A stretch of 64,000 nt of DNA from Candidatus Parcubacteria bacterium (GCA_018664825.1 JABJNO010000006.1:15157-79156); one strand, 5' to 3'. Counted from the stretch's first letter, positions 676-47,643 are shown. A program made the numbers and translations. Notes: a model not told the origin generated them from the letters alone.

Positions 676-1473
676 ATGAGAGAACGTGAATCTGGTCGTC
701 GTGGTCTACGCGACAATGATCGTGGAAGCGATCGACGTCGTAATGATCACACCGACGATCCTCCTCCTCCCCGTGAGGAAGTGGATACGCATCATGAGGA
801 GCGTAGAACCACTACTGCTCCCCGCCGAAACACTGAATCCGAAAGGGTCACTCCTCCGCCAACTGAGCGCGTTGCTCCAGTTGCAGCAAAAGTTGCTGAG
901 GAAGAGCCGACCAATTCTGTCATCAGTGCTGATGAACTGGCTCGCAACGGCTATACCAGTGAAGCTCCCTGGGAAAATCTTCCCGCGGACGTCGTGGTAA
1001 TCTGCTGTAGCGATCAGCGATTTGGTCGTCAAAACCGTGAATTCCTGCGAGCCCTGGGTTTCCAGAGTCCGCATTTCATCCAGATTCCTTCGGGACTGGC
1101 TGTATTCCACGGTCTGGCCGCGGTAAGTGGATTTTTGCCCAAAGGCATGAATCTTCTGCTCGATAAGGCGATCGATCTGACTGGCGTCAAAGACGTCATC
1201 TGTATCGCTCACCATGACTGTGGTGGCTACAAAGCTGGTCGCTTCGAAGTGATCGGCAAGCTGACTCGCCGTCTGGCTGGCATGGACATCCAAGATGTCC
1301 AGACCGAACAGCTCCACAGAGCTGCTCGTGACGTCCAACTCAGAATGGGCAATGACACGACTGTTCGTGCATTCTACTCCGACGTAGTCGGAAACGAAGG
1401 CGACCAGCAGGTCAAGTTCAGCGAAATTGATCTGATTCAGCGTAGTCTACGCAAAAAGCGCAAGGCAAGCTAA
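676..1473 (+). CDS. Beta-carbonic-anhydrase-like protein with an Arg/Asp/Pro-rich disordered N-terminal extension
   Basis: The two beta-CA zinc-ligand and dyad motifs are in the right order and spacing: VVICCSDQRF (C-x-D-x-R) and ICIAHHDCGGYKAG (H-x-x-C-G). The first 90 aa are low complexity (RRGLRDNDRGSDRRRND, PPPPREE). GC-rich. The internal ORFs 686..1000 and 706..1338 are antisense or out of frame and are ignored. Confidence 0.4.
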   Translation: MRERESGRRGLRDNDRGSDRRRNDHTDDPPPPREEVDTHHEERRTTTAPRRNTESERVTPPPTERVAPVAAKVAEEEPTNSVISADELARNGYTSEAPWENLPADVVVICCSDQRFGRQNREFLRALGFQSPHFIQIPSGLAVFHGLAAVSGFLPKGMNLLLDKAIDLTGVKDVICIAHHDCGGYKAGRFEVIGKLTRRLAGMDIQDVQTEQLHRAARDVQLRMGNDTTVRAFYSDVVGNEGDQQVKFSEIDLIQRSLRKKRKAS

Positions 1474-4299: not shown

Positions 4300-5061
4300 T
4301 TAGCTGTGTGGCAAAATAATACCGACAAAATACATCAGTAATACTCCTACTACTAGCCAAATTGAATGAGAAATAATATTTTTCTTGTTTTCTCCATGAT
4401 GAAGCTCTGGAATCAAATCAGCAGTAGCCAAGTATATAAAATTACCAGCTGCAAAAGCCAAAACGAGTGGAATAATATTTTGCAAAGTACTACCAAAATA
4501 ATAAAATAATAAAGCTCCAAGCACAGCTATCAGGGCTGTCACTAGATTATAAAAAATTGCCTTAGCCTTTGATAATCCTGCATAAAGTAAGACTCCAAAA
4601 TCAGAAATTTCTTGGGGTATCTCATGAAGTACTACCGCCAAAGTGACCATCAGGCCAGCATGAAAATCTATCAAAAAAGCAGAGGCTATCAAAGCACCGT
4701 CAACAAAATTGTGAATACCATCACCCACCAAGTTGATAAGGGCCAAATTCTTTTTATCTTTTGTGTTTGGCTTGCCGTGATCCTCACAATGACAATGATG
4801 CCAGTGAAATACTCTTTCTAATAAAAAGAAAAATACAATACTAACAAGTACAACCATCATGATTTGATGAACATCGTAAATTTCTGCCTCAATGGCCTCG
4901 GGCAACATATCCAAAAGAGAAACAGAAAGTAGTGCTCCAGCTGCCACAGAAATCAAGGCTTTGAGAAAACTCTTTTTATTGTCTTTTTTGAAAATGACTA
5001 AAATCCCTACCAATGAGATAAGGCTGACAAAAATTGTAGCTAACAAAATGTTTAATAACAT
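4300..5061 (-). CDS. zupT: ZIP family zinc/iron permease
   Basis: Eight predicted TM helices. His-rich loop HWHHCHCEDHG. Conserved HNFVDGALIASAF and LHEIPQEISDFGVLL (ZIP HExPxE signature). Confidence 0.8.
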   Translation of the reverse strand: MLLNILLATIFVSLISLVGILVIFKKDNKKSFLKALISVAAGALLSVSLLDMLPEAIEAEIYDVHQIMMVVLVSIVFFFLLERVFHWHHCHCEDHGKPNTKDKKNLALINLVGDGIHNFVDGALIASAFLIDFHAGLMVTLAVVLHEIPQEISDFGVLLYAGLSKAKAIFYNLVTALIAVLGALLFYYFGSTLQNIIPLVLAFAAGNFIYLATADLIPELHHGENKKNIISHSIWLVVGVLLMYFVGIILPHS

Positions 5062-5088
5062 GAACTATCTTATCTTAATAATAACTTG

Positions 5089-5127
5089 GCCCAGGCCACC
5101 CTCTCTGGCTCCGCCACTCACCTTGCC
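5089..5127 (-). promoter_or_regulatory. GC-rich structured 5' leader element, copy 1, upstream of zupT
   Basis: ggcccaggccaccctctctggctccgccactcaccttgc. This is an about 39-nt GC-rich island in AT-rich DNA, between the extended -10 and the start codon. It is nearly identical at 6744-6782. It contains the ggcca-ccctctc-tggcc hairpin. Confidence 0.45.
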
Positions 5128-5175
5128 TTTATTATATCAAAAAACCCCGCCAGAAGCGAGGTTTGAATATTTTCA
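5128..5175 (-). terminator. Terminator-promoter cassette copy 1 (hairpin CCTCGCTTCTGGCGGGG + T6 + TGATATAAT)
   Basis: Minus strand: aaacctcgcttctggcggggttttttgatataat. A nearly identical cassette lies at about 9241-9290 and 11803-11870, with a related one at 10176-10262. Confidence 0.55.
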
Positions 5176-5185
5176 TTGCCTATAA

Positions 5186-5437
5186 TCAAGTATTGCTATT
5201 TTTTTCTTTCTCTATAGCCTCTTCGATAAGCTTAATTTTATCTATCCACTCTTGTGGTGCGCTTCCTTTTGTTTCTTCTCTTACTATTTTTGCAGCTTGA
5301 AGTGATCCATTTTTATTTCTCAGCCATTTCAAATACCCACCTCCTGAATATTTGGTCCTGTTGATTTCTAAGGTTTCAGGTGTAATTTCATCAAATTTAT
5401 CTTCGTCGCTTTTGAATAATGATTTAAAAAAATTCAT
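5186..5437 (-). CDS. Small conserved hypothetical protein (about 83 aa), copy 1 of a duplicated gene
   Basis: MNFFKSLFKSDEDKFDEITPETLEINRTKYSGGGYLKWLRNKNGSLQAAKIVREETKGSAPQEWIDKIKLIEEAIEKEKNSNT. About 90% DNA identity to 9297..9548, including its downstream terminator. The start is taken at the Met conserved in both copies; the track start is 5467. Confidence 0.6.
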   Translation of the reverse strand: MNFFKSLFKSDEDKFDEITPETLEINRTKYSGGGYLKWLRNKNGSLQAAKIVREETKGSAPQEWIDKIKLIEEAIEKEKNSNT

Positions 5438-5442
5438 ATTTT

Positions 5443-6156
5443 TTATTTTAATATTGTACCTCCCCACTCTACAACAGCAAAACCTTCTCTGTTGAATGTT
5501 TCTATTGTTTGTGGTTGCAACTCTACCATTTCATCCAATGATTTAAATACTACAAAAACACGCAAAACTGAATCCGGCTTAGGATCTATATCCAATTCTG
5601 CTCTGTCATGATATTCCTCCTTAGTAGCAAAATGAACTAAATTATATTTATTATTCAATAATTGTGGTAACCAATAAACAATAAATTCATTATACTCTTT
5701 TGGAGTTAGGCCGATTTCAGCTAACTTTTCTTGTAGAAAAAATACTGTTTCCTCTCCACTCACAACAAAGCCCGTAGACAAATCATAGTCCACATCTTTG
5801 TTGGATTCTCCCTCCCAAAAAAGATAACTATATTCTCTGTTGTCTTTTAGGTTGATGATTTTACTATCTGGATAAGCAAAGACATTCCAACCATTTTCAT
5901 ATTCTGGATATGTAACTGTAAAAGTGCCCTGATAATTTAGTTGAACATCAATATTTTGAGCTTGAGTTGGATAAAGATAAATAACCGGCTTCCACTCATC
6001 ATAAGGGCCTCCCGGAGGCGAAGATGGTGGCGTAGTTGAGCTCACCTCTTGGACTGGTGGGCTTATCGGCTCTATGTTTTCTGGTTCACTTGTATCTGTT
6101 GTACAAGCTGCACCCATCAGTAATGGAATGATTAAAACTAATAATAATTTTTTCAT
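5443..6156 (-). CDS. Putative lipoprotein
   Basis: Likely start MKKLLLVLIIPLLMGAAC with a lipobox-like LMGAAC. The mature part is Pro/Ser-rich and then globular. This start avoids overlap with the upstream NYN gene. Confidence 0.45.
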   Translation of the reverse strand: MKKLLLVLIIPLLMGAACTTDTSEPENIEPISPPVQEVSSTTPPSSPPGGPYDEWKPVIYLYPTQAQNIDVQLNYQGTFTVTYPEYENGWNVFAYPDSKIINLKDNREYSYLFWEGESNKDVDYDLSTGFVVSGEETVFFLQEKLAEIGLTPKEYNEFIVYWLPQLLNNKYNLVHFATKEEYHDRAELDIDPKPDSVLRVFVVFKSLDEMVELQPQTIETFNREGFAVVEWGGTILK

Positions 6157-6178
6157 GATTTTATTTTGAAAACACCTT

Positions 6179-6724
6179 TTATTTTTTATTAATATATTTC
6201 CTAGGAGCTTTATATACAAACCAGTCTTCTTTGGTTATCTCATAAAAATAATCCGCTTCTTCAACTAATATTCTTGCTGCAGTTTTCTTTACGGCTGCTA
6301 TTTCTACTCTGACTCCCTCACCCTTCAGATGAGACACCAGATCTACATAATCAGAATCTCCAGACATTATTATGATAGTATCAACTTTTGAAGCAAGCTG
6401 TGTAGCTTTGATAGTCAAAGGTATATCTGCTGATTTATGACATGGTATCACTGACCCATAATAATTTTCATGTAACCTTTCTGCAAATTTGGATGAGATG
6501 GATTTCCCTTCACGAAAATATAACAACCTATTCAAACCCCTGCCATTCAATAATTTTGGAATAACTTTATCAAAATCAATCATTGCGCTTTTATTTTTAG
6601 AAACATCGTGAATACTTCTCTCGATATTATTTCCATCACAAAGTATGGCCACAGATTGGTTTATGACCTGTTGTCTTACTTCTGGAATTAAATCGTTGGA
6701 TACTTGATTATTTTTTATCATCAT
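6179..6724 (-). CDS. NYN/LabA-like (DUF88-type) PIN-fold domain protein
   Basis: VAILCDGNNIERS ... IIIMSGDSDYVDLVSHLKGEGVRVEIAAV pattern, typical of LabA/NYN domains. Confidence 0.5.
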   Translation of the reverse strand: MMIKNNQVSNDLIPEVRQQVINQSVAILCDGNNIERSIHDVSKNKSAMIDFDKVIPKLLNGRGLNRLLYFREGKSISSKFAERLHENYYGSVIPCHKSADIPLTIKATQLASKVDTIIIMSGDSDYVDLVSHLKGEGVRVEIAAVKKTAARILVEEADYFYEITKEDWFVYKAPRKYINKK

Positions 6725-6743
6725 AATATTTATTTAATAACAT

Positions 6744-6782
6744 GGCCCAGGCCACCCTCTCTGGCCTTGCCATTCACCTTGC
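6744..6782 (-). promoter_or_regulatory. GC-rich structured 5' leader element, copy 2, upstream of the NYN gene
   Basis: ggcccaggccaccctctctggccttgccattcaccttgc. It is followed on the plus-strand side by the T-tract/TATATCA promoter motif, the same arrangement as copy 1. Confidence 0.45.
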
Positions 6783-6861
6783 GTTCAGTATATCAAAAAA
6801 CCATCCTAAGCGATAGCCGAATGGATGATTCTTTGATTGGTCTCATATAGACGCAAATATA

Positions 6862-8268
6862 TTACCCACCAATACCTTGTCCTTCATAAAGAATTGTACC
6901 AATATCATCTCGTAATATATGGACCTCATACCAAAGGTCGTCTGTGTTTTCAATAGAAAAAAGCGCCTTCCAATACCAATCACCTTCATTTGAACCAGTT
7001 TCTACAGAATATTCAATATCACCCAAATTTTCATATTTGTTAATAAAATCTGCCAATACCTTACTTTTTCTTCTGGCCCAAATTGTAGCATCGGTTGAAT
7101 TATTTATTGGTAAAACAATTTCCTTGGGATACAAATCATGGCATTCATAAAAATCAACTTCCGCATCACGGCAATCATCATAGGTTGTATCTGTTTCTGT
7201 TATTTTTCCATTGTCATATATATACGCTCCATACTCATTCGTTGTGTTCCTTTTTATCTTTACAACATAACAATTTACACAATCCAATGACTCAGCTGAA
7301 AGTATAGTAGCATCACCGGTCCATCCTAAGTGCTCTGCTACAAATCTCAAAACATCCTTTGGCTCTTTTTTCCATGCACGTAAACATACCCGGGCTTCCT
7401 CGGTCCATCTATAGCCTGCCAAATAATCACATCCATATTTCTCATCATTGGATTTGCGTTCTTCTACTTTTACTTTTTGTTGAATTTTTTTGTAGCTACC
7501 ATAATATACAATACCAGCCTCTATTATCTGAATAACAAATAACATTAGGAAAAGAATAATCAATGCATTTATTACTTTTCGTCTACTTTTTGTAAGAATC
7601 GCAATTGTGCCAATGATCCAAATTAAATAAACCATTGTCTCAATCCAAGACCCAACCACTCTTTCTTCGGTACAATCATCACCACTAATCGGGCAAAGCA
7701 GAGTAAGTGGAGCATAAAAAATATTTAATACTGGGAGCTCATACAATCGTAATAATATATTCTTTTCTTCAGGCCAATAAATATCATTGGATCTTTTTAT
7801 GTGCCTTATATAATAATCATACATGTATTTTTTGTACACGCCTTCAGTGTCTGTGGCAAAATATTTTTTCTCCTCAAGATATTCATCAGAAGGATTACCA
7901 GATATTGTAACAAGGGGTACGGCATAAGGATCAAATACCATAATCTCTTCTCCTGCAGATAACTTTGGAGAATGTATGTCAGATTTGATTATAACATCTT
8001 TTGAATCAACGCTTGCAGTGTAAAAATCACCCAAGCCTCCTTCATATTTTTCGTCTTGCAAAACTTCCAGAATCTTCATTTCCTTGATATCCTCTTCTGG
8101 CGCATCATATACTATAGGAGTGATAATTAAAGGAAAAATAATAACAAGCAAAGTCAAAATCAAAATAATTATTTTTTTATTAAAAAATTTAAATTTATTA
8201 TTTTCCATTAGCTCCTCTTGAGGTGCTGGATTGTACTCTTGTTGAATTTTAAATTCTTGTTCTTCCAT
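6862..8268 (-). CDS. Membrane-anchored hypothetical protein, paralogous at its N-terminus to 12267..13802
   Basis: The likely start MEEQEFKIQQEYNPAPQEE matches MEEQNQNLEQEPQIQQEYKPVPQEG of the other gene. It is followed by one TM helix. There are two more TM helices mid-protein. Co-oriented 14 nt downstream of corA. Confidence 0.5.
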   Translation of the reverse strand: MEEQEFKIQQEYNPAPQEELMENNKFKFFNKKIIILILTLLVIIFPLIITPIVYDAPEEDIKEMKILEVLQDEKYEGGLGDFYTASVDSKDVIIKSDIHSPKLSAGEEIMVFDPYAVPLVTISGNPSDEYLEEKKYFATDTEGVYKKYMYDYYIRHIKRSNDIYWPEEKNILLRLYELPVLNIFYAPLTLLCPISGDDCTEERVVGSWIETMVYLIWIIGTIAILTKSRRKVINALIILFLMLFVIQIIEAGIVYYGSYKKIQQKVKVEERKSNDEKYGCDYLAGYRWTEEARVCLRAWKKEPKDVLRFVAEHLGWTGDATILSAESLDCVNCYVVKIKRNTTNEYGAYIYDNGKITETDTTYDDCRDAEVDFYECHDLYPKEIVLPINNSTDATIWARRKSKVLADFINKYENLGDIEYSVETGSNEGDWYWKALFSIENTDDLWYEVHILRDDIGTILYEGQGIGG

Positions 8269-8282
8269 GTTTTTATTTTTAA

Positions 8283-9212
8283 TTATAGCCACTTTTTTTT
8301 ATAAAATAAGAAAAGAAAAGCTGCTATTCCAAATGAGGAAAAAAACAAAACATAGAGAAAAGCAAACTTGCTGCCCGCTAAAGGCAGCTCAACATTCATA
8401 CCATAAAGACTAGCTATAATAGTTGGGATAGTCATAACAATAGTGAAGGCTGTAAGAAACTGGATAATTTTATTTAAACGATTAGTAAAAAGAATCTGAT
8501 AAGATTCCCGCAAACTCTTAATACTTTTTAGGTTAACCTGACAAATGTCTACTGATTGTCGAATACTATTTAACATATCATCAAACAAATCCTGGTCTTC
8601 TCTATAAAATTTTAGATAACTACTACTCATTAAATTTTCAAATAAATTTCTCATGGGTATCAAAGCTGAGATATATTGATTGAGAACATCTTCGTGGTTG
8701 ATTAGTTCACTAATATCAGAATTTTTAATATTCTCAATATGCTTCTTTTTGGACAAAACCTCATAACTAATCTCTTTAACTCTATTAGTAAAACTTCTAG
8801 AAACTTTTAGGAGCACATAAACCAACATCTTACCTCTTTGAGTAGTAGCAATTGATAGGCTGTTTTTTTGTATTTCTTTTATTATACTATTCTTTTCAGC
8901 AGAAATAGTAATAAAATATTTACTATTAATAATAATAGCCAATGGTACAGTATGAATAAATTTATGATCACTATTTTTTATTATCGGTGTCCTAATAAAT
9001 AAAATTATGCTCTTATTGTGCCTTTCCATACGAGGCAACTCTTGTAAATCTAAGGTATCTTGTAAATCTAAAAGACTTAAATCAGTTAATTTGGTTATAT
9101 CCTCTAAATCATTATGCTCTGCATGATTAATATTTATCCAAGAACCTTCCCGAATTTTTTGAACTTTTTTTAACCTTTTACTTTGAGCCGTTTTAAAATA
9201 TACTTTCAACAT
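8283..9212 (-). CDS. corA: CorA-family Mg2+/Co2+ transporter
   Basis: C-terminal YGMNVELP (GMN signature) followed by two TM helices. Length about 310 aa is typical of CorA. Confidence 0.75.
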   Translation of the reverse strand: MLKVYFKTAQSKRLKKVQKIREGSWININHAEHNDLEDITKLTDLSLLDLQDTLDLQELPRMERHNKSIILFIRTPIIKNSDHKFIHTVPLAIIINSKYFITISAEKNSIIKEIQKNSLSIATTQRGKMLVYVLLKVSRSFTNRVKEISYEVLSKKKHIENIKNSDISELINHEDVLNQYISALIPMRNLFENLMSSSYLKFYREDQDLFDDMLNSIRQSVDICQVNLKSIKSLRESYQILFTNRLNKIIQFLTAFTIVMTIPTIIASLYGMNVELPLAGSKFAFLYVLFFSSFGIAAFLFLFYKKKWL

Positions 9213-9240
9213 GTTTATCTTTTTATTTTAATATTACTCT

Positions 9241-9292
9241 CAGTATATCAAAAAACCCCACCAGAAGCGAGGTTTAAATATTTTCATTGGCT
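9241..9292 (-). terminator. Terminator-promoter cassette copy 2
   Basis: Minus strand: aaacctcgcttctggtggggttttttgatatact. This is the same cassette as at 5128. Confidence 0.55.
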
Positions 9293-9296
9293 ATAA

Positions 9297-9548
9297 TCAA
9301 ATATTGTTATTTTTTTCTTTCTCTATAGCCTCTTCGATAAGTTTAATTTTATCTATCCACTCTTGTGGTGCGCTTCCCTTTGTTTCTTCCCTTATTATCT
9401 TTGCAGCTTGAAGTGGCCCATTTTTATTTTGCAGCCATTTCAAATATCCACCACCTGAATATTTAATCCTATTGATTTCTAATGTTTCTGGTGTAATTTC
9501 ATCAAACTTATCTTTGTCGCTTTTGAATAATGATTTAAAAATATTCAT
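9297..9548 (-). CDS. Small conserved hypothetical protein (about 83 aa), copy 2 of the duplicated gene
   Basis: MNIFKSLFKSDKDKFDEITPETLEINRIKYSGGGYLKWLQNKNGPLQAAKIIREETKGSAPQEWIDKIKLIEEAIEKEKNNNI. Duplicate of 5186..5437. Confidence 0.6.
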   Translation of the reverse strand: MNIFKSLFKSDKDKFDEITPETLEINRIKYSGGGYLKWLQNKNGPLQAAKIIREETKGSAPQEWIDKIKLIEEAIEKEKNNNI

Positions 9549-9737
9549 AATTTTATTTTGTCTTCCCAAATAATTTTAAAAGTATTTCTTCTGGACCAAG
9601 ATCATACCCAGAAAGTAGGCCCATTGATAGTAACAACAAAAATATTAAAATCAAAATAAGTATTATAATTAATATTTTCATAATCTAAATTTAATAAAAA
9701 TAATTAGAACATCTACCAGGTTCTATAAATTATTTTT

Positions 9738-10172
9738 CTATGATTCCAAAATTCCTAACAGGTCCCTAGCCAACTCCGGAGCATCCGTAGGCCTTGCCTC
9801 TTTTTCTACCATACGCAAATCCTGTGGTACGTCCCTATACTGTTCTTTGAGTGATTGGATGACATATCTAAGTTCCGTTGTTTTGGCTTTCCATTCAGCT
9901 TGAACGGCCTCATCTGCATCTACGCCGTGAAAAGCTGATTCGGCATTATGCAAAAAATCCCACATTTCTTCTGGGGTAGCATGGCCTTTTTCTACACCAT
10001 CTATTATTTTTTGCAGCTCAAATTTTACGACTTCTTCTTTTTTAATTTCAGCCCTTTCAACCACTGGTTTTTCTGTGGTATTTGGCTGTTTTTCTTCTTT
10101 ATTTTCTGGTTGTGAAGATGTTTCTGGATCAAATCCTGGCATAATTTTATTATTAAATAATCTTATTTTCAT
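9738..10172 (-). CDS. Hypothetical protein
   Basis: ORF only. Followed by a terminator/TGGTATAAT module. No recognisable domain. Confidence 0.4.
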   Translation of the reverse strand: MKIRLFNNKIMPGFDPETSSQPENKEEKQPNTTEKPVVERAEIKKEEVVKFELQKIIDGVEKGHATPEEMWDFLHNAESAFHGVDADEAVQAEWKAKTTELRYVIQSLKEQYRDVPQDLRMVEKEARPTDAPELARDLLGILES

Positions 10173-10175
10173 TAT

Positions 10176-10262
10176 ACCAAAAAACCGCCTTTAGGGCGAT
10201 TTCTTTGGGCGGGGCACTTTCAGAACTTTTTGTTATGAAAATCCTGACTTTGATATTCTTAA
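10176..10262 (-). terminator. Terminator-promoter cassette (cgcc-ctaaa-ggcg hairpin + T6 + TGGTATAAT). It shares the ttttcataacaaaaagttctga segment with the cassette at 11803-11870.
   Basis: Minus strand: ...cataacaaaaagttctgaaagtgccccgcccaaagaaatcgccctaaaggcggttttttggtataat. Confidence 0.5.
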
Positions 10263-10276
10263 ACTATGATTTGTAA

Positions 10277-11785
10277 CTATTTTTTATCTTGAACTATCTT
10301 TTCTAAAGCTTTTTTAAATAAGCCCTCCCATTTTTCCATCGGCTGACTTATAATCATAGGCTTCAACATTTTACGTAATTCATCACTGTGTTCGCCAGCT
10401 TCTTGGTCAATTTTTCTAAAAAATTCCAAACCATCTTCTGTGCTTTGTGAACAATTTTCTTCAAAATGATCCAGAGCCTCTTCAGCCTTTGCTAAACTCC
10501 TGCCAATTGCATCCTCATCTTTTTTACCACGAGGAGTTCCTTTTGTCTCAATACGAAGTTGTCTAAAACTAAGAGTAAGTCTTCTATGCTCAGGATTCTC
10601 CACGCCAAGTTCCTCTAATAAATCATTTGGATAATATTTTAATAACATTTTTTCAAAAGTCAAACGAATATTTCCTACGGCAGCTTTTAACTTTGTTACA
10701 TAAATTGGAATTATATCATTAATATCTTCATTGGATGTTCCTGAAAAATAATAAGCTAATAACTCTTCTTTAACAGTTGCCTCTATAGATGTTTTTTGAA
10801 AATAAGCTACTATTTCTTCTAGCTTGGCCGCAATTTCTTCTAATGATTTTTCAAACGCTTGTTTTAACTTTTCTCTTTGCTCAGCTTTTAGATGTTGGGC
10901 AAATATTTCTTGTATCTCGTCTGGCAAAAGTACCCCCTTACTTTCTTTTGCCTTGGTTATTTCTTGTTGAACTTCTAGAGTTTCTATTTCTAATGTTTGA
11001 ATCATTATCTCCAAGCCATCCACGGACTCCGAAATAACTTTTTGCGGCCCCTCCATTTGTCTACGAGGCCTTAAATACAAACTATTTTCAGCGTGTTGCT
11101 TTTCATGCTCAACTATTTTATCAATATCAGATTCTGTATCCCCTTCTTCAAAGCCGCTTTTGTTTATCAAAATAACCATTTCGCTCACAGAACCAACTTC
11201 TTCTAGATCTAAATCAGGATCGGCAAAAAAAGCACCCAAGGGCAAACCCATGTCACTTGATGAAGGTAATTCTTCGAGAGACATTTCGGATTCTTCAAAA
11301 TCTGCATAAACATCGCCCTCTTTGTGGATGCCCTGAGCTACATCAAGATGATGGTCACACATAAATATTAGACTGTCTTTATCTGGGATTAATGTAATAT
11401 CTCCAAATGTGCCAGAAGAAGAAAATATTTCTTTAAACATAGCTTCTTCATATTCTTCTTCACCAAAACGCTCTTTGTAAACATCAATAGCTCTGGCAAT
11501 TGTTTCACGTTTATTAAAAAGAGTCTCAATCCCTTTTAAAAAATATTCGTGTTGTCTTTTTGTAAATTCATGATTTTCCAAAACAGCTATAACCTCTTGA
11601 CGACTAGCTTCGGGGTTTTCTTGCATAAAATTTTGTACATCACGTACAGCCTCACTAAAATCTGCCAATTGTTCAAAAACCTGCTCTTCTAGTGGAAGAT
11701 TATCTTTGTCTTTTATTTTTTGTTCTGATTCTGCCGTGTCTTCCGTTTCAGAGACCTGATTTCCTTGTTCTAATAATTTTTTCAT
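10277..11785 (-). CDS. Acidic, coiled-coil-rich hypothetical protein
   Basis: 502-aa ORF rich in Glu/Lys. No recognisable catalytic motif. Confidence 0.45.
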   Translation of the reverse strand: MKKLLEQGNQVSETEDTAESEQKIKDKDNLPLEEQVFEQLADFSEAVRDVQNFMQENPEASRQEVIAVLENHEFTKRQHEYFLKGIETLFNKRETIARAIDVYKERFGEEEYEEAMFKEIFSSSGTFGDITLIPDKDSLIFMCDHHLDVAQGIHKEGDVYADFEESEMSLEELPSSSDMGLPLGAFFADPDLDLEEVGSVSEMVILINKSGFEEGDTESDIDKIVEHEKQHAENSLYLRPRRQMEGPQKVISESVDGLEIMIQTLEIETLEVQQEITKAKESKGVLLPDEIQEIFAQHLKAEQREKLKQAFEKSLEEIAAKLEEIVAYFQKTSIEATVKEELLAYYFSGTSNEDINDIIPIYVTKLKAAVGNIRLTFEKMLLKYYPNDLLEELGVENPEHRRLTLSFRQLRIETKGTPRGKKDEDAIGRSLAKAEEALDHFEENCSQSTEDGLEFFRKIDQEAGEHSDELRKMLKPMIISQPMEKWEGLFKKALEKIVQDKK

Positions 11786-11802
11786 GAAAATTGTATTATT
11801 AA

Positions 11803-11870
11803 TATAATTTGATTATATCAAAAAACCCCGCCAGAAGCGAGGTCAGAACTTTTTGTTATGAAAACCCTGT
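11803..11870 (-). terminator. Terminator-promoter cassette copy 3 (CCTCGCTTCTGGCGGGG + T6 + TGATATAAT)
   Basis: Minus strand: ...cataacaaaaagttctgacctcgcttctggcggggttttttgatataatcaaattat. Confidence 0.55.
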
Positions 11871-11872
11871 TT

Positions 11873-12046
11873 TTAATTTTTCTTACTTGCTATAAATGCT
11901 TCTACCATTAAACCTAGACCTAAACCAATCATAATAGGGCCAATGAAAAATAAAGGACTAAGATGCAAAAATAAAAAACCTACCCCGACACCCATAAGAA
12001 CACCTCCGCCAATAGCTAAACCACCTTGATTTTTTTTGTCTGACAT
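11873..12046 (-). CDS. Small glycine-zipper membrane protein
   Basis: MSDKKNQGGLAIGGGVLMGVGVGFLFLHLSPLFFIGPIMIGLGLGLMVEAFIASKKN. The start is taken at an internal Met; the track start is 12094. Confidence 0.35.
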   Translation of the reverse strand: MSDKKNQGGLAIGGGVLMGVGVGFLFLHLSPLFFIGPIMIGLGLGLMVEAFIASKKN

Positions 12047-12122
12047 AATTTTAAAATTAAAAATAAACAACATCTTCATTATACCACAAAACAAAAAACG
12101 AGCTAAGGTTAGCTCACTTTTT

Positions 12123-12231
12123 GACCCCTCGACTCGTTACACTCGCTCAGGACAAGTTGGGTCTCTATCGTAGACCCTGAGCGATTAAAAGGAGTCGAAT
12201 GGGTCGTAGACCCTGAGCGAAGCCGAAGGGT
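12123..12231 (+). repeat. Cluster of three copies of the TGAGCG...TCGAA hairpin repeat: one inverted (12123-12156) and two direct (12173-12205 and 12210-12231)
   Basis: Inverted copy gacccctcgactcgttacactcgctcaggac. Direct copies gaccc-TGAGCGATTAAAAGGAGTCGAAT-gggtc and accc-TGAGCGAAGCCGAA-gggt. A GC-rich patch in an AT-rich spacer. Confidence 0.55.
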
Positions 12232-12266
12232 GGGGTCCTTACGGACCTTAGTTATAACTTAATTAT

Positions 12267-13802
12267 TTATGGACAAAATGTATCACTTACTTGGAAACTA
12301 GTTTCTTTTGGTTGATAATCACTATTTACGCACCAGTACTTATCTTCGGCCAATTTAACAGAGGCAGCCCAAGCCTCAAATTCAGAAACACAAGAAAAAT
12401 TTATTACCCCTAAATCACTCTCTATGATATTAACTTCTGAACTCACACAAAAATCTAAATAAGTTAAATTATCATCATAATAGATTGTACTCAAATTTAA
12501 TAACTCACTAATCTTTGATTTTCTAGAAGCTTGTTCTTCACTAGATACTCCCCAATCATTTAATTCACCCGTGGTCAAAACACCCTCTCCTAAAGGATTA
12601 TAACCATTCTCTACCTCAGCACCATCTAAATAACCATCTCCGTCGGTATCTGGATTATTTGGATCGGTACCATGCATCGCCTCTAAAACATCATTCAAGC
12701 CATCTCCGTCGGTATCAATATTGTCTAAATCAGCATCAAAGAATACATTATCATTATTTATTAAAACAGTATCTTCGTCAATATCACTATCAATATTTTC
12801 TATGCACTCATAACTTATCACATCCATATAATAACCAAGGTAATTTTTGTCTGCATCATATTTTGGTTTTAAGCCATATAAATTACCTTCTGCACTTGCA
12901 TATTGTGGACAAAATATTTTTTCATTAGTATAAAGCACTATCTGACCATATTCAGTGTTTAAATAATGTTCTATTGGATTATCATTTATTCTCATATTAT
13001 GAGAATAATTATATTCCGGATACAAAACTTTTTCTTCAGTTAAGACGCCTTGTAATATAACAATCCCCTGACTAGCTTTACTAATCTGATTGTCAAGGCC
13101 AGTAGCCGCTGGCTCAAAAAACTTAAAAGTATCCACTATACTATGATTTTTTATTCTCTGTCTTTCTATATCTTCATTTTTATCTAATAGAAATAAAATA
13201 CTAACCACATGATCATTTTTTATAAACATAAAATGCTCTTTCATGCCACGATATAATACTCTATCCTCTGGATAATCCATAATAAAATTATAAACATACA
13301 TATCGTTTATTATTATAACCTTCCCTTCAACAAATTCTTCTGATAATTCAAACTGTTGCACTAGTAACTCATAACTTTCTGGGTCTGAAAAATCAACAAT
13401 AATGTCAGAACCTCCCATGGTCATAAAAAATGACTTATCGTCTTCAGACTTCCAACCATCATGATCGCCAATTTTAATAATCTTTAAATCCTCAGGGAAA
13501 GACATATTAAAGGCCCAATAAGTATCTTCTATTTCATGCCATCCTAATTTATCTATTTTATCTTTTTCCTCATTTAAAACTATTTCATTTTTTTGATCTA
13601 CTTCTTCTGCTTCTATGACTACTGTTTTATTAGCTTGTAACCACCAAAAAATCCCTCCCCCAACTAACACTAAAAATATAACAACCACCCCAATTATCAA
13701 TGGCCAATTATTTTTCTTTTGCACTACCCCCTCTTGAGGTACAGGTTTATACTCTTGTTGAATTTGAGGTTCTTGTTCAAGATTTTGATTTTGCTCTTCC
13801 AT
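12267..13802 (-). CDS. Membrane-anchored surface protein with a TSP3-like Ca-binding module
   Basis: N-terminal TM helix. Motif DTDGDGLNDVLEAMHGTDPNNPDTDGDGYLDGAEVENGYNPLGEG, shared with the genes at 18869 and 45985. N-terminus paralogous to the gene at 6862. Confidence 0.5.
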   Translation of the reverse strand: MEEQNQNLEQEPQIQQEYKPVPQEGVVQKKNNWPLIIGVVVIFLVLVGGGIFWWLQANKTVVIEAEEVDQKNEIVLNEEKDKIDKLGWHEIEDTYWAFNMSFPEDLKIIKIGDHDGWKSEDDKSFFMTMGGSDIIVDFSDPESYELLVQQFELSEEFVEGKVIIINDMYVYNFIMDYPEDRVLYRGMKEHFMFIKNDHVVSILFLLDKNEDIERQRIKNHSIVDTFKFFEPAATGLDNQISKASQGIVILQGVLTEEKVLYPEYNYSHNMRINDNPIEHYLNTEYGQIVLYTNEKIFCPQYASAEGNLYGLKPKYDADKNYLGYYMDVISYECIENIDSDIDEDTVLINNDNVFFDADLDNIDTDGDGLNDVLEAMHGTDPNNPDTDGDGYLDGAEVENGYNPLGEGVLTTGELNDWGVSSEEQASRKSKISELLNLSTIYYDDNLTYLDFCVSSEVNIIESDLGVINFSCVSEFEAWAASVKLAEDKYWCVNSDYQPKETSFQVSDTFCP

Positions 13803-13863
13803 AATTTTATTTTAATATATTTAGTATATCAAAAAACCACTTGTTTATAAAGTGATTCTTTGA

Positions 13864-18868: not shown

Positions 18869-21800
18869 TTAAGCTTCTATTTCTTCTCTCTTTCTTTGAT
18901 GCAAAAATATAATAACTATCAACGCAATGATAATGAGTACCGCTGCTCCTATAATATAATAAACTACCATGTTGTTTACATTGTTTGGGACAGTGGCATT
19001 ATCAAAATAATCATCAGCTGTCACCGCTTGGGCAGATTTGACCAAAAAAGAAGTTGGGTTTGATTGTTTTACTATCTTGCCAGTGTCATCATTGACCGTC
19101 ACATAGACCCGATGATGTCCATCAGCCAAAGAATGTTGTATGTCATACGTCCAGTTACCACTAGCGTCTGTCTTGGTGGTCATCACTAAAGGCAAATCAC
19201 TATACAAGAAAAGTGTCACCCAAGTATTTGGTGTTGCTTTACCTCCAAACTTTACATTTTTATCTTGGCTATTGATGTTATTAACATCAAAATTTTTATC
19301 AATCTTTTTTGATTTTACTCTCGGCTGTTCAATCATCTCACCAGCTGCAATAGCCTGCTCCAAATCATTTCTCGTGATTTCTAGCCTGCCTGGCCCCAAA
19401 GGATCATAGCCATTTTTTATTTCCTGACCATCTAGATAGCCATCTCCATCGGTGTCTGGATTGTTTGGATCGGTATCATAATATACTTCCAAGTCATCAC
19501 TCAAGCCATCCTCATCAGTATCAACCATCAAAATAGCCTGATTTACGATAGTCAATCTATCAGTATCTTCCAAAACTGTCTCTGATTTTGATTGAGCAAT
19601 GTATACATTTGTTTCTGCTTCTTCGAGTGGAGTCAGTGGAATAATTTCTTCATCTATACCTCCTTCATTCAAAGTAGCGTTGAGCTCGCCGACTGTCATC
19701 ACCTGTCCTATCAAAGGACTCAAAATATTATTGATATTAGTGGTTTGTCTTTGCCCAATAACCAAACGATTTAAGTATTCATCTCTCAATATATCATTAC
19801 AAATACTGATATCATCAAGCTGACAATCTACTGCGCTTCCATATTCTTCCAAGAGATAGTCTTTGCACTGATTGATATCTACAATACCCTTGTCCTGACA
19901 CTCCGTGTCCACATGAACTCTATTGAGATAGTCTTCACAAGAAATAGCATCATATATACCCTGTTCAATACACTCGTCAGCCAACGAGTCTATAGTCGCT
20001 CGAAATAAACGACAATTTTCTTCATCGCTAATGCCAGCTTCTATACAACTGGTATAAATAGTTACCGCCACACTAGCCCCTGAATCAGAAATTTCCTCTT
20101 CTTGCTCTGGAATATCCTCGGGCTCTACATCCTCATCTTCTACTTCATCCTCTACCTCGTCTTCTACCTCAGAAACAACAACATTTCCCTGCTCAATAGA
20201 AAAATAAATACGCTCTGTTTGTAAGGTTCCGTTTATCAATTCGATATAAAAATAATAATCTCCATCCTCTATCAACTGATTACCGTCTTCATCTTCAGAA
20301 TAAAATGTATATAACAACTTGTTGCTGATATTTGGATTATCTTCTTCATCTATGCTCCATGGCTCCAAAGATTCCCAATCTATCGTATAATTATTCCCCG
20401 TTTTATCAGAAACCTCTTCACCATCAACATAAAATAAATGCTGAACTGAAGCAAATGAATTTAATGATGTTAAAAATGGAAAACCGAGAGTAGCCCTTCC
20501 TTCTCTTCCTTCAAAAATACGCGGAGCGTGCAAATCAAAAATAACATCTTCCGGCACTTCCTGATTCTGACCTTCATTAACTATCTCTATATTTTCCAAA
20601 ATATTACTAGTCACCCATGGAATATACATATTACCCTCTGCCGAATGTTGGAGCCAAGCATCATAGATACCAGAAGTCAGGCCACCTAAACCATCCAAAT
20701 GGGCAGGATCTTTTGCATAAGCATAATCTGCGTCTGGAAAATTATCTCTATTTATTCCGTAGCCTTCAAGCTGACTCCAATCAGCTAAATCAGCTGAAAA
20801 ATAATATTTACTTTCATCAGCTTGATTTTCAAATACAAAATAAACCATCTGATTGTTCAGATCTACATTGGAACTCCCCATCAAAGTCACATCACCCTCC
20901 ATAAAAGATTCAGTATTGTGAAAATTGAGAACCACGTCATCCGGTGGCGGTGGTGGCAAATCCGGATCTTCTGTTTCTGCCACAATCAAGTTGTAGCCAT
21001 AGGTCGGCAGTCCTCCGCCTTCAAGCTCATATATAGTTCCGTCTTCTTTGGTGATTTCAAAAATCAAGTCATAGTTTCCTGATGGAAAAATATCGTCCCA
21101 AAAGTCGAGTATTATTCCACCTCCCCAAATATAACTATCTGGCTGTACCTGCGCAAGAACACCACCTCCGGCAATAGCGGCATCATCTTGATAAACAAAC
21201 TCGATCCCAACATCTGTAGCTATAAAATCTAATTCGATCTCAATATCAATTGGTATTATACCGTTGGAAATCAAATCACTACCTGGCACAGGAGCGATTA
21301 TGACGACCTCTTCTACTTCTGGTTGTTCTGTCAAATTACTCACTGCATATGACTCCAAAACAAACAGTGGTTCGTCTAGAGAAATTCCATTGATCTCCTC
21401 ATAAATTTTTACACTGTACGTACTATTTTGGTACAATGGTGTCCCATCAGCTCGGGCAACTGTAGTATCCCAATAACCAGAATACATCAATACACCATCA
21501 GCATCTGAAGAAAAAAGATCAACAGACCCTACATAATAATCAAAGACGTTAAAAATTTTGGCTGTTAGCTTAATGTTATCCCCCAATGGTCTGTTTATTT
21601 CAAATGCCAAAAGTACTTCTCCTGACAAGTCGGTCTCAGTAGGAGAAATAACACTTACTATTTCCAAAGGTACTATTTCTGGAATATCGACAGCAGGAGG
21701 AACTATAGAAAATCTTACATAATTACTAATCGCACCGGTGGGTCCTTCTTCGCCACTACTGCCATCAAGATCAGCTTGCATTATTATCTGATATTCACCA

Positions 21801-45984: not shown

Positions 45985-47643
45985 ATGCCAAAACAAAAAA
46001 TAAAATTCTTGTTTTTGATAATTACTGGGTATTTTTTTATTTTTGCCAAGCCAGCCAAGGCTGTCATACCGCCTGATTTTATATTTAGCATTACTGCCCA
46101 AATAGTCCAATTTTTTTCAATCATAATGATATTTTTGGCTACTATTTTAGGAACTTTGGTTCAATTTTTTAAAACGAAATACTACACTATCAGACACAAA
46201 AAAACTATCCTGACCTTGATAATAATCGGTATTGTCTTGGTCTCTTTTGTTTCTTCCTACTTTTATGCTACCCACAAACAAGAAGTCGAATATCAAAAAT
46301 GGCTAAACGAAAGTGAAAAATACAATATAGTAGAAATGGAGAACGAAGACATGGACTCTGATGGTGATGGACTGACAGATCTAGAAGAAGTCACCTACGG
46401 CACAAATCCTCACAACGCAGACACTGACGGAGACTCCTACTCAGACGGAGAAGAAGTCGCCAATGGCTATGATCCCCTGGGAAGTGGCAAGACCAAAGAA
46501 AATATAGAAAAAGGAGATGCAAACGATCAGCTAGCAATCGGTGCTCAAGCAAATGAAAATATCGATACTTCCGACAATACATTTGTATCCAATGTAGAGA
46601 TCACTGATGCTTCTACTAGTTTTATAAATGAGTATTATAGCAACATGGCCAACAGCAAACTAACCGAGGCCTATGAAATGTCAAAAAAATCTGTCAGCTA
46701 CTCAACATTTGAAAGCTGGTATCTAGAAACTACCAAAATTACTATTGATAAACTCATCAGAATAGACGAAACAAAATCATCCATAGAGCTCACTTTGTTT
46801 GAAGGAGAAAAATTTACTAGATATGGTGTCTTGATGGCTTTGGAGTTGAGAAATGAAATCCCACAAAGAGTAGCTAGCTCCAATGTAAAAATACTAGCCG
46901 AAGGAACTATCCAAAATCAAATTGTATCTATAGACGAACAAAAACTTTCTGATGAATATGCTTTTTTTGATGAACATAAAAACAAAAATCTCCTCTTCGG
47001 CAACCAAGAGCTACAAGACTTGATATCTAGTAGCGCCCAAGACTATATCATCTTGGATGCCAGAGAAGATATCGAATATGAAAATGGATATTTTCCTGCT
47101 AGTGAACATATACGCTTTGCAGATCTCAAGGCCGGACAATGGATAGAAATACCAGATGATAAATTTGTCTATGTCCTCTGCTGGTCAGGTATCCGTGGCA
47201 AAGAAGTAGCCGAATTTTTGAGAACCAAAAAAATAGTTGCCTCATACCTAGAAGAAGGAGCCAATGGCTGGGTAGAATTTGGTGGACACTGGATAGGTAG
47301 TATAAAATTTGGAGCACAATACAACGAATCAAGATATCAAATAGTATTTGATACTGATGATGTCAGACAAAAAGTACGAGATGGTGCCTTTTTGGTAGAT
47401 ACTAGAGAGCCCTACAAATTTAAACAAACCCACATAACAGGCAGTGTAAATATACCTATCATGTACACTCCTACTGTAAATATCGAAAATGTTTTTGCCC
47501 AAGTGCCAGCCAACAGCCAAATAATCACTGTCTGCGATGGTTATGTAAATTGTTTTGATGCAAAAATAACTGGCGTAGAACTAGAAAGACGTGGACATCA
47601 GTTTTTGGGAAGATACAATAAACCCTGGGAATATGAAAATTAA
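45985..47643 (+). CDS. Membrane-anchored protein with TSP3-like Ca-binding module and two C-terminal rhodanese domains
   Basis: Signal/TM N-terminus. DSDGDGLTDLEEVTYGTNPHNADTDGDSYSDGEEVANGYDPLGSG. Rhodanese 1 active-site loop LCWSGIRGKE. Rhodanese 2 ITVCDGYVNC. Confidence 0.55.
   Translation: MPKQKIKFLFLIITGYFFIFAKPAKAVIPPDFIFSITAQIVQFFSIIMIFLATILGTLVQFFKTKYYTIRHKKTILTLIIIGIVLVSFVSSYFYATHKQEVEYQKWLNESEKYNIVEMENEDMDSDGDGLTDLEEVTYGTNPHNADTDGDSYSDGEEVANGYDPLGSGKTKENIEKGDANDQLAIGAQANENIDTSDNTFVSNVEITDASTSFINEYYSNMANSKLTEAYEMSKKSVSYSTFESWYLETTKITIDKLIRIDETKSSIELTLFEGEKFTRYGVLMALELRNEIPQRVASSNVKILAEGTIQNQIVSIDEQKLSDEYAFFDEHKNKNLLFGNQELQDLISSSAQDYIILDAREDIEYENGYFPASEHIRFADLKAGQWIEIPDDKFVYVLCWSGIRGKEVAEFLRTKKIVASYLEEGANGWVEFGGHWIGSIKFGAQYNESRYQIVFDTDDVRQKVRDGAFLVDTREPYKFKQTHITGSVNIPIMYTPTVNIENVFAQVPANSQIITVCDGYVNCFDAKITGVELERRGHQFLGRYNKPWEYEN

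Follow-up and report, generated by a model that had tools for sequence, protein, structure and literature searches.

A duplicated 83-aa gene with a predicted terminator-promoter tail upstream of ZIP and CorA transporter genes in a Candidatus Parcubacteria genome, and a 39/45-nt two-hairpin element at neighbouring leaders

A stretch of 64,000 nucleotides (nt) from Candidatus Parcubacteria bacterium (GCA_018664825.1, JABJNO010000006.1:15157-79156), referred to here at its full length as the window, carries two closely similar copies of a small gene of 83 amino acids (aa), one immediately upstream of a gene for a ZIP-family transporter and the other immediately upstream of a gene for a CorA-family transporter. 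A repeat search of the window paired 5133-5432 with 9244-9543 at 92% identity over 300 nt (family D2), and BLAST extended the pair to 5133-5449 and 9244-9559, or 317 nt at 91.8% identity, in good agreement with the two regions of about 320 bp and about 90% identity described in the original prediction for this locus. Its further statement, that the small gene had been copied together with a terminator-promoter tail upstream of both ZIP and CorA, is borne out by the alignment, the list of open reading frames (ORFs) and the Pfam matches. In a MAFFT pairwise alignment, homology begins about 12 nt 5' of each ATG and ends exactly at a -10 box (GATATAAT / GATATACT), past which the sequences of the two copies are unrelated. 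The features concerned are:

5133..5449, minus strand: repeat unit copy 1 (leader of about 12 nt, coding sequence (CDS), 3' untranslated region (UTR), terminator and -10 box)
9244..9559, minus strand: repeat unit copy 2 (alignment, repeat search and BLAST)
5186..5437, minus strand: 83-aa gene copy 1 (ORF list; family hidden Markov model, 113 bits)
9297..9548, minus strand: 83-aa gene copy 2 (ORF list; family hidden Markov model, 111 bits)
5131..5164, minus strand: cassette 1, with the T1 hairpin AAACCTCGCTTCTGGCGGGGTTT, a T-run and the fused extended -10 box TGATATAAT at 5139-5131 (terminator scan, fold and motif search)
9242..9275, minus strand: cassette 2, with the T1 hairpin, a T-run and TGATATACT (terminator scan, fold and motif search)
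11812..11844, minus strand: cassette 3, with the T1 hairpin, a T-run and TGATATAAT and without the 83-aa ORF, between the 73-aa and 502-aa ORFs (hairpin 21-mer; family D4)
4300..5061, minus strand: ZIP-family transporter gene, 3' of copy 1 (Pfam Zip, 2.6e-40)
8283..9212, minus strand: CorA-family transporter gene, 3' of copy 2 (Pfam CorA, 6.6e-39)
5087..5125, minus strand: 39-nt GC-rich element, the copy beside ZIP (covariance model R1, 59 bits, E = 3e-20)
6743..6781, minus strand: 39-nt element, second copy, ahead of the NYN gene (R1, 60.5 bits)

The repeat is not an assembly artefact, because independent assemblies of the same population (at least 99.76% identity) show the same architecture. 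Both copies occur on three of these contigs (L008, L009 and L011), and four shorter contigs of the same identity (L006, L007, L010 and L012) have one copy each. Every contig examined across the whole interval has the two copies; a deletion variant was not seen among them.

Both ORFs are intact, each of 83 aa, and their products differ at 8 residues. Comparison of the two genes gave 8.5 non-synonymous and 12.5 synonymous differences (pN 0.042, pS 0.27, dS about 0.34), and a ratio of the non-synonymous to the synonymous rate (dN/dS) of 0.13. The exact copy 1 protein was found on 22 contigs (25 blocks in the index), while copy 2 is represented by a cluster (P0001) that is 99% identical. A word-indexed search of 5.8 billion proteins detected only four relatives, and an exhaustive profile search of 1.84 billion representative proteins detected 38 at E<=1e-3, with homologues reaching down to 25–30% identity in other genomes of the candidate phyla radiation (CPR). 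The named sources are metagenome-assembled genomes (MAGs) of Candidatus Sungbacteria and Candidatus Nealsonbacteria, and one MAG labelled 'Patescibacteria group bacterium', so that the family appears to be small and restricted to CPR/Parcubacteria. With their intact frames, a dN/dS of 0.13 and a conserved family, both ORFs are, as judged from sequence comparison, genuine paralogous genes retained under purifying selection.

Most family members are 80–120 aa long, and a six-frame translation of the window contains no matches to the family profile other than copies 1 and 2. The common motifs are an N-terminal M-x-F-(F/L)-K-x-L-F, then F-x-E-I-T-P-E-F-L and Y-x-K-W-L-R, and a C-terminal I-P-x-x-W-I-D-K-x-x-L-I-E-x-E-I-E-K; Tyr35 is the sole invariant residue among 34 members, and Trp38 and Leu39 are more than 90% conserved. 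Five members (P0029, P0033, P0034, P0036 and P0038) have a transmembrane (TM) helix ahead of the domain. In three others the domain forms the N-terminal part of a longer protein and is followed by a hydrophobic segment, and in two of these three (P0028 and P0039) the segment is followed by TPR repeats (Pfam TPR, 1e-27 to 1e-31). With both copies as queries, nothing significant was found in Pfam, NCBIfam, PHROGs or PADLOC, no Pfam family was matched by more than one of the 34 members, and the best hit of a sequence profile search of the PDB had E = 1.4. These proteins define a small, unannotated, CPR-specific family of about 40 representatives, with a predicted three-helix bundle (see later) and no Pfam entry.

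The tail of the repeat unit consists of a hairpin, a T-run and an extended -10 box, and the first two of these have the form of an intrinsic terminator, predicted from a 10-pair stem and T6 located 22–45 nt past each stop codon. The terminator scan reported a hairpin with T-run at 5164-5142, 9275-9253 and 11844-11824. The fold energy is -14.5 kcal/mol (z = -3.3) for cassette 1 and -12.6 kcal/mol (z = -2.2) for cassette 2, where the stem has one change that turns a G-C pair into G-U. A 21-mer of the hairpin occurs three times in the window against none expected. An extended -10 promoter of the sigma-70 type was defined by a TGnTATAAT box with the transcription start about 7 nt downstream; the box itself (TGATATAAT / TGATATACT) is the sole basis for the predicted promoter, and no -35 match was reported. 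The window has nine occurrences of TTTTTGATATAMT when up to one mismatch is allowed, against an expected 1.2. Intergenic minus-strand sites in the interval 5.1–13.8 kb (5131-13835) account for six of them; there the T-run is fused to the extended -10 box and is followed by an AT-rich leader, TATTAAAATAAAAWTATG, that is similar among the sites; the other three near-matches include one on the plus strand at 13590-13602. The general layout, as seen in alignment A7, is a variable terminator hairpin, T-run, TGATATAMT, 5 nt, an optional 39-nt element, and TATTAAAATAAAAWT-ATG, and it recurs in the related genomes L021, L048, L049 and L064. Between the copies, the stretch of 55 nt that runs from the stop codon through the -10 box shows 4 differences, compared with about 13 at 46 synonymous sites (Fisher p 0.007–0.013); the tail is therefore constrained, or has been homogenised. 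The cassette would then end the transcription unit of the small gene and restart transcription for the gene that follows, ZIP or CorA, and the three occurrences show the reuse of terminator/promoter modules in a compact CPR genome.

The genes surrounding the two copies are also on the minus strand, and those with listed coordinates are:

6179-6724, minus strand: NYN gene, at the head of the predicted NYN-258aa-copy 1 operon
5443-6219, minus strand: gene for a 258-aa signal-peptide protein, with a 5-nt gap before copy 1
9738-10172, minus strand: 144-aa ORF, upstream of copy 2
9553-9681, minus strand: doubtful 42-aa hydrophobic ORF, between the 144-aa ORF and copy 2
11873-12094, minus strand: 73-aa membrane ORF, 5' of cassette 3
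10277-11785, minus strand: 502-aa ORF, 3' of cassette 3

Read in the direction of transcription, from 14 to 1.5 kb, the order is a 511-aa ORF, the 73-aa membrane ORF, cassette 3, and the 502-aa and 144-aa ORFs; then the doubtful 42-aa ORF, copy 2, cassette 2, CorA and a 476-aa ORF; then a different terminator with the same -10 box and a 39-nt element, NYN and the 258-aa signal-peptide protein; and finally copy 1 (after the 5-nt gap), cassette 1 with the other 39-nt element, ZIP, a 227-aa ORF and a 664-aa ORF. The 476-aa membrane ORF (6862-8292) overlaps CorA by 10 nt at the CorA stop codon. This gene order places each small gene at the end of the preceding unit rather than at the start of the transporter unit: copy 1 would be the last cistron of NYN-258aa-copy 1, and copy 2, downstream of the 144-aa ORF, the final cistron of its unit or the sole one, if the operon boundaries inferred here are correct. 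The 476-aa and 511-aa ORFs, both membrane-anchored, share an N-terminal segment (8195-8262 and 13711-13778; EEQ..IQQEY.P.PQE; family D6). The 511-aa ORF also has Asp-rich repeats resembling thrombospondin type 3 in common with two other ORFs of the window (12589-12718, 19395-19524 and about 46345-46488).

The arrangement is probably best explained if a segment of about 315 bp underwent dispersed duplication and gave rise to two paralogous small genes. What was duplicated would have run from a short AT-rich leader through the CDS and 3' UTR to an intrinsic terminator, whose T-run is fused to an extended -10 box, and the conserved tail would stop its own unit and then drive whichever gene comes next. 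Both small genes would have been kept for a function of their own, probably close to the membrane. The setting appears to be an accessory, recombination-prone region of 10 kb built of reshuffled modules, as judged from three occurrences of one terminator, at least six of one promoter/leader layout, the N-terminal segments shared between ORFs and the two 39-nt elements.

A different emphasis was raised in the original prediction, namely that the duplicated unit may be the promoter cassette, with the ORF hitch-hiking; in a fuller form, the terminator/promoter cassette would be what was copied and selected, and the 83-aa ORF on one occasion a passenger. In favour of this, a third hairpin, T-run and -10 box stands without the ORF, the tail is significantly more conserved than synonymous sites, and six local units, as well as related genomes, have one promoter/leader layout in common. 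The hitch-hiking part of the proposal fares less well: the ORF is intact in both copies, evolves at a dN/dS of 0.13, has conserved homologues at 25–30% identity in other CPR genomes, and in those homologues is found without this cassette downstream, the next gene following within 8–35 nt in L001, L004 and L005. This explanation is considered unlikely.

The position of both copies next to genes for divalent-metal transporters had led to the suggestion that the small protein could be a metallochaperone or a regulator. About 10 loci with homologues in other CPR genomes (L001-L005 and L013-L020) were inspected, and in none of them does a metal transporter gene adjoin the family gene. In L001 and L003 it follows the gene for a large secreted protease-like protein, and in L001 it is followed by that of a 150-aa membrane-anchored protein; in L002 it comes after a protein with a thrombospondin-type-3-like repeat; in L004 it lies between two paralogous membrane-anchored proteins; and in L005 a multi-TM protein precedes it, and a lipoprotein-like gene and one resembling a ligand-gated channel follow. 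In Candidatus Sungbacteria (L013-L015) a 106-aa member starts 1 nt after a Band_7/SPFH gene, beside dnaA-dnaN, and it is possible that this member is functionally paired with the Band_7 protein, a membrane scaffold. A Band_7 gene is also present in the genome from which the window derives, beyond the low-coordinate end and about 4.6 kb from copy 1 (L008 14841-16544). The remaining sites are a restriction-modification and integrase island (L016), a position between a Zincin_1 gene and a 423-aa ORF with an H+-pyrophosphatase gene next (L018), and a group of small unknown ORFs (L020). At the loci inspected across genomes, then, family members have no metal transporter next to them; the original prediction had regarded such an outcome, for further copies within the genome, as counting against its proposal.

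The protein itself gives no indication of metal binding. Neither copy contains Cys or His, Met is found at the start position only, no conserved metal-ligand motif (Cys/His/Met) is present among the 34 family members, and there is no homology to a metal-binding family or fold, so that a metallochaperone or other metal-binding protein is not supported. For a regulator, a DNA-binding domain was looked for, and no HTH (helix-turn-helix) or FUR match was found in Pfam, with the Fur gene of L004 serving as a positive control; a tblastn search of the 64-kb window found no Fur homologue. Membership of a metal regulon, or a role as an accessory gene of the transporters, is likewise unsupported, given the predicted terminator between the genes and the absence of conserved synteny. 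A small gene immediately upstream of metal-uptake genes is reminiscent of the CopZ/HMA chaperones and of Zur/Fur before ZIP or znu genes, and in L004 (16206-17388) a true Fur-family gene (Pfam FUR, 4e-15) occupies exactly that position, directly upstream of the ZIP orthologue and overlapping it. The 83-aa protein differs from these known systems in having no ligand residues, HTH or HMA domain, or homology to them, in the terminator that separates the genes, and in the lack of conserved synteny. Since homologue loci have no adjacent transporter, terminators intervene and ligand residues are missing, the metal reading fails the tests applied to it; adjacency to the transporters would therefore seem to be positional rather than functional, and there is no evidence here for a new metal-homeostasis factor.

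Another form of the link is that each paralogue serves its own transporter, ZIP or CorA, as a dedicated cytoplasmic partner with an accessory or regulatory role, for example in gating or stabilisation, the 8 residues having diverged to fit the two transporters. In its favour are the position of both copies immediately upstream of divalent-cation transporters, purifying selection on both despite a dS of about 0.34, the ZIP orthologue found 5.4–6.4 kb from the homologue in L004 and L005, and the apparent membrane association of the family. The lack of Cys/His and of a conserved ligand motif, the strong predicted terminator within each gene pair and the absence of an adjacent metal transporter in L001-L005 and L013-L020 argue against it, as do the opposite orientation of ZIP in L005 and the presence in L004 of a Fur-family regulator directly upstream of ZIP; a dedicated partnership is on balance quite improbable. 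Least likely is that the 315-bp direct repeats are scars left when the 3.8-kb CorA-476aa-NYN-258aa block entered through one crossover, the chromosomal small gene recombining with a homologous copy carried by circular DNA, since the sharp, identical boundaries of the direct repeats, the GC content of CorA (28%, the lowest of the region, against about 35%) and the fluid synteny (in L048, a closer relative of the window's genome whose NYN has 86% identity, the place after NYN is taken not by 258aa-small-ZIP but by a gene that by eye, with no domain search, is short-chain-dehydrogenase-like) are offset by a Pfam search that found no integrase or mobile-element gene in the block, by the 8% divergence, which implies an old event, and by all examined spanning contigs holding both copies with no deletion variant.

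The duplication explanation is thus preferred, and the protein was examined for a function that would fit it. AlphaFold2, run with a small alignment, predicted a three-helix bundle (helices 20-29, 34-56 and 62-81) with a mean predicted local distance difference test score (pLDDT) of 79 and a predicted template modelling score (pTM) of 0.67; residues 1-12 are poorly modelled, the N-terminal segment having a pLDDT below 50. Foldseek comparison of the model with the PDB gave no match better than E = 4.5. Profile searching and structure prediction, the checks to which the original prediction had looked, have therefore yielded neither a known family nor a solved-structure relative, and leave a predicted three-helix bundle. 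From the model, the protein would be a cytoplasmic bundle of about 65 residues behind a conserved hydrophobic or amphipathic N-terminal motif, MxFFKxLF. Neighbours with a signal peptide or TM segments are found in the window and in L001, L004 and L005, and because relatives have an N-terminal TM helix or a TM+TPR fusion, and the genes alongside usually encode signal-peptide or membrane proteins, we infer that the protein may work on the cytoplasmic side of the membrane, where it would be a small adaptor or partner for envelope proteins. N-terminal amphipathic helices target FtsY and SepF to the membrane, and the M-x-F-F-K-x-L-F-K start of the 83-aa family, followed by a soluble helical domain, is of similar design, with a TM helix replacing or added to the segment in relatives. 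There is no sequence homology to FtsY or SepF, however, and the segment, whose binding to membranes is putative, is modelled at low confidence.

Several observations weigh against the preferred interpretation. The two small genes of the window both precede divalent-metal transporter genes (2/2), a coincidence that requires luck, and the two closest long loci each have a ZIP orthologue (62% identity) in the wider neighbourhood of the homologue, in L004 at 6.4 kb on the downstream side and in L005 on the other strand, 5.4 kb upstream. Both the activity of the promoters and the efficiency of the terminators are predictions, and co-transcription by read-through is possible. The adaptor role is based solely on family architecture and neighbourhood, and the N-terminal segment, besides its pLDDT of less than 50, has a merely moderate hydrophobic moment of about 0.5.

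Bifunctional terminator-promoter intergenic modules occur in compact bacterial genomes, and the tail of the repeat unit resembles them, with a GC-rich hairpin and T-run fused to TGnTATAAT in a module of about 35 nt at three sites. It differs in that a single hairpin sequence has three copies within 7 kb, one of the copying events having taken a whole CDS with it, and in that its activity is predicted. The repeat pair has an ordinary explanation, in which an unannotated small-protein gene of CPR bacteria was duplicated and both copies kept, with reuse of a terminator/promoter module. Of greater significance than the 83-aa duplication is the 39/45-nt element found at two of the leaders.

The two copies of this element in the window lie outside the 83-aa duplication unit, and both begin 5 nt past the -10 box. 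They are contained in a 68-nt repeat (D5, 5079-5146 and 6735-6802, 88% identity) whose core is GC-rich and which lies upstream of both ZIP and NYN, and the NYN orthologue locus of L048 has the same arrangement of -10 box and 39-nt element. An exact 20-mer from the core was present in 45 metagenome stretches, and a comparison of flanks across the survey loci (L021-L065) showed the element to be a discrete unit of 39 or 45 nt, composed of CAAGGTGAAT, a hairpin of 9 or 15 nt, and AGAGAGGGTGGCCTGGGCCA. Its anatomy is CAAGGUGAAU, a variable hairpin, AGAGAGGG and a second hairpin, UGGCCUGGGCCA. The two hairpins are supported by 33 distinct versions, with pairing in 97.6% of cells and compensatory changes at 8 of the 10 pairs; the observed values were not reached in any of 500 shuffles, slid controls collapsed, and RNAalifold independently predicted the same helices. 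Because both hairpins covary, function or mobility via the sense-strand RNA or single-stranded DNA is suggested. The covariance model built from them (R1) found 70 strong copies (E<=6e-12) in 0.49 Mb, with exactly two in the window, where the element most likely gives the mRNAs of ZIP and of the NYN operon a structured 5' end.

The host loci are diverse, with GC contents of 32–43% (CPR-like, from marine and groundwater metagenomes), about 52% (human gut) and 64% (TARA scaffolds). At least 15 distinct sites are inside long ORFs, all in the sense orientation and in one frame, encoding KVNG(x1-3)AREGGLG(Q/H). Five of the six frames are stop-free, and 18 of 18 copies use the same one (binomial 2.6e-13). 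As read from the flanks, with no domain search, the interrupted ORFs include three ABC (ATP-binding cassette) ATPases with the insert at the same loop, a MurF-like and a uL23-like protein, the tail of a Clp-type ATPase, and a GpmI-like mutase with three tandem copies. Tandem copies are found at L027, L038, L043, L062 and L030. In the human-gut contigs L036 and L050 (about 52% GC), three adjacent ABC-transporter genes have one or two 45-nt copies each, all sense, and further copies occur in non-coding DNA nearby (10 model matches in 13 kb of L036), a clustering that suggests local hopping.

Outside ORFs, the element starts exactly 5 nt past the -10 hexamer in seven CPR leaders, including both of those in the window. 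One copy sits between the T-stem and T-loop of a tRNA-His within a tRNA array (L046 1579-1623; Rfam tRNA score, 33.5 bits), and on the 64% GC scaffolds copies occupy the loops of hairpins that resemble repetitive extragenic palindromes (REPs), the flank of L032 holding an empty REP unit of the same family. The filled and empty REP sites of L032 and the tRNA T-arm of L046 show clean insertion with no duplication. The element has CAAGGT... at one end and ...GGGCCA at the other, which do not form inverted repeats, and there is no duplication of the target site.

Rfam contained no match to the element, whether at the gathering score or at E<=10. Plasmids and phages were searched by BLAST with the 39-nt form, and E. 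coli genomes with the 45-nt form; neither search gave a match, in both cases at a cutoff (E<=0.01) that detects only near-full-length copies of the queried version, and an exact scan of viral contigs with the 20-mer core found no match. A 46-aa query of concatenated peptides returned a single weak match (E = 5) in a Mariprofundus MAG, and a search of a paper library by sequence, peptide and description found no account of the element there. Several known classes were considered. A riboswitch for ZIP was suggested by a loose likeness to ZTP motifs (GACUGGCG / CCGCCUGGGC) and was rejected on the missing Rfam match, the absence of the element upstream of the ZIP orthologues in L004 and L005, and its occurrence in ORFs and a tRNA. 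As a cis-regulatory RNA of the kind held in Rfam it has the conserved structure, but its sites are ORFs, a tRNA, REP loops and the leaders of unrelated genes. The plus strand ends in ...GCTCCGCCA, like a tRNA 3' end or attachment-site (att) remnant, but has no T-arm and is unrelated to the four tRNAs of the window. Translational bypass, whether as in T4 gene 60 or of the mitochondrial 'byp' type, is unlikely, the frame in use being stop-free and the length always a multiple of 3, and an archaeal-type bulge-helix-bulge (BHB) intron is excluded by flanks that are not conserved, so that no exon-intron helix is possible. A transposable element of the miniature inverted-repeat kind (MITE) would have the terminal inverted repeats and target-site duplication that are missing here.

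The nearest analogues would seem to be the Rickettsia palindromic elements (RPEs) and the palindromic amphipathic repeat coding elements (PARCELs), which are selfish or horizontally spread coding repeats lying in-frame in ORFs; an RPE is about 150 bp and confined to Rickettsia, and PARCELs are 75-nt tandem units, sporadic across bacteria and eukaryotic microbes (PMC10969869; PMC2996958). The 39/45-nt element is likewise hairpin-forming, lies in-frame in unrelated and often housekeeping ORFs (at least 15 ORF sites), encodes a conserved peptide, and has a distribution that suggests horizontal spread. It is unlike RPEs in size and host range, being much smaller than either class and nearly invariant in nucleotide sequence across phyla of 33–65% GC, and it differs further in its sites at transcription starts, a tRNA T-loop and REP loops, in its single orientation and frame, and in having neither terminal inverted repeats nor target-site duplication. 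A tentative interpretation, put forward as plausible rather than probable, is that these copies represent an undescribed, cross-phylum family of elements that insert cleanly and always in the sense orientation, and hence a type of minimal element, mobile or structured, that would be new. The bias of frame and orientation could be due in part to selection for a benign, Gly-rich, hydrophilic insert, and the cases in 5' UTRs could in part reflect common descent of the promoter cassette. If the family is indeed undescribed, a near-invariant sequence is common to CPR, gut and marine bacteria, inside essential genes, a tRNA and the 5' ends of mRNAs, and raises the questions of how so small an element moves, whether it is translated or removed from RNA, and what role it has in 5' UTRs.

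Two other regions of the window are of interest. Between 31403 and 32778 there are three copies of a 186-nt unit, spaced by about 600 nt and of 63–75% identity, which are probably tandem paralogous genes. The first 1500 nt (1-1500) have a GC content of 56%, compared with about 35% elsewhere, and contain ORFs that include one of 265 aa at 676-1473 (plus strand) with an Arg/Pro-rich N-terminus. The junction of this stretch is confirmed by three independent assemblies (L008, L009 and L010), so it is not a chimera, and the stretch may represent a recent horizontal acquisition.

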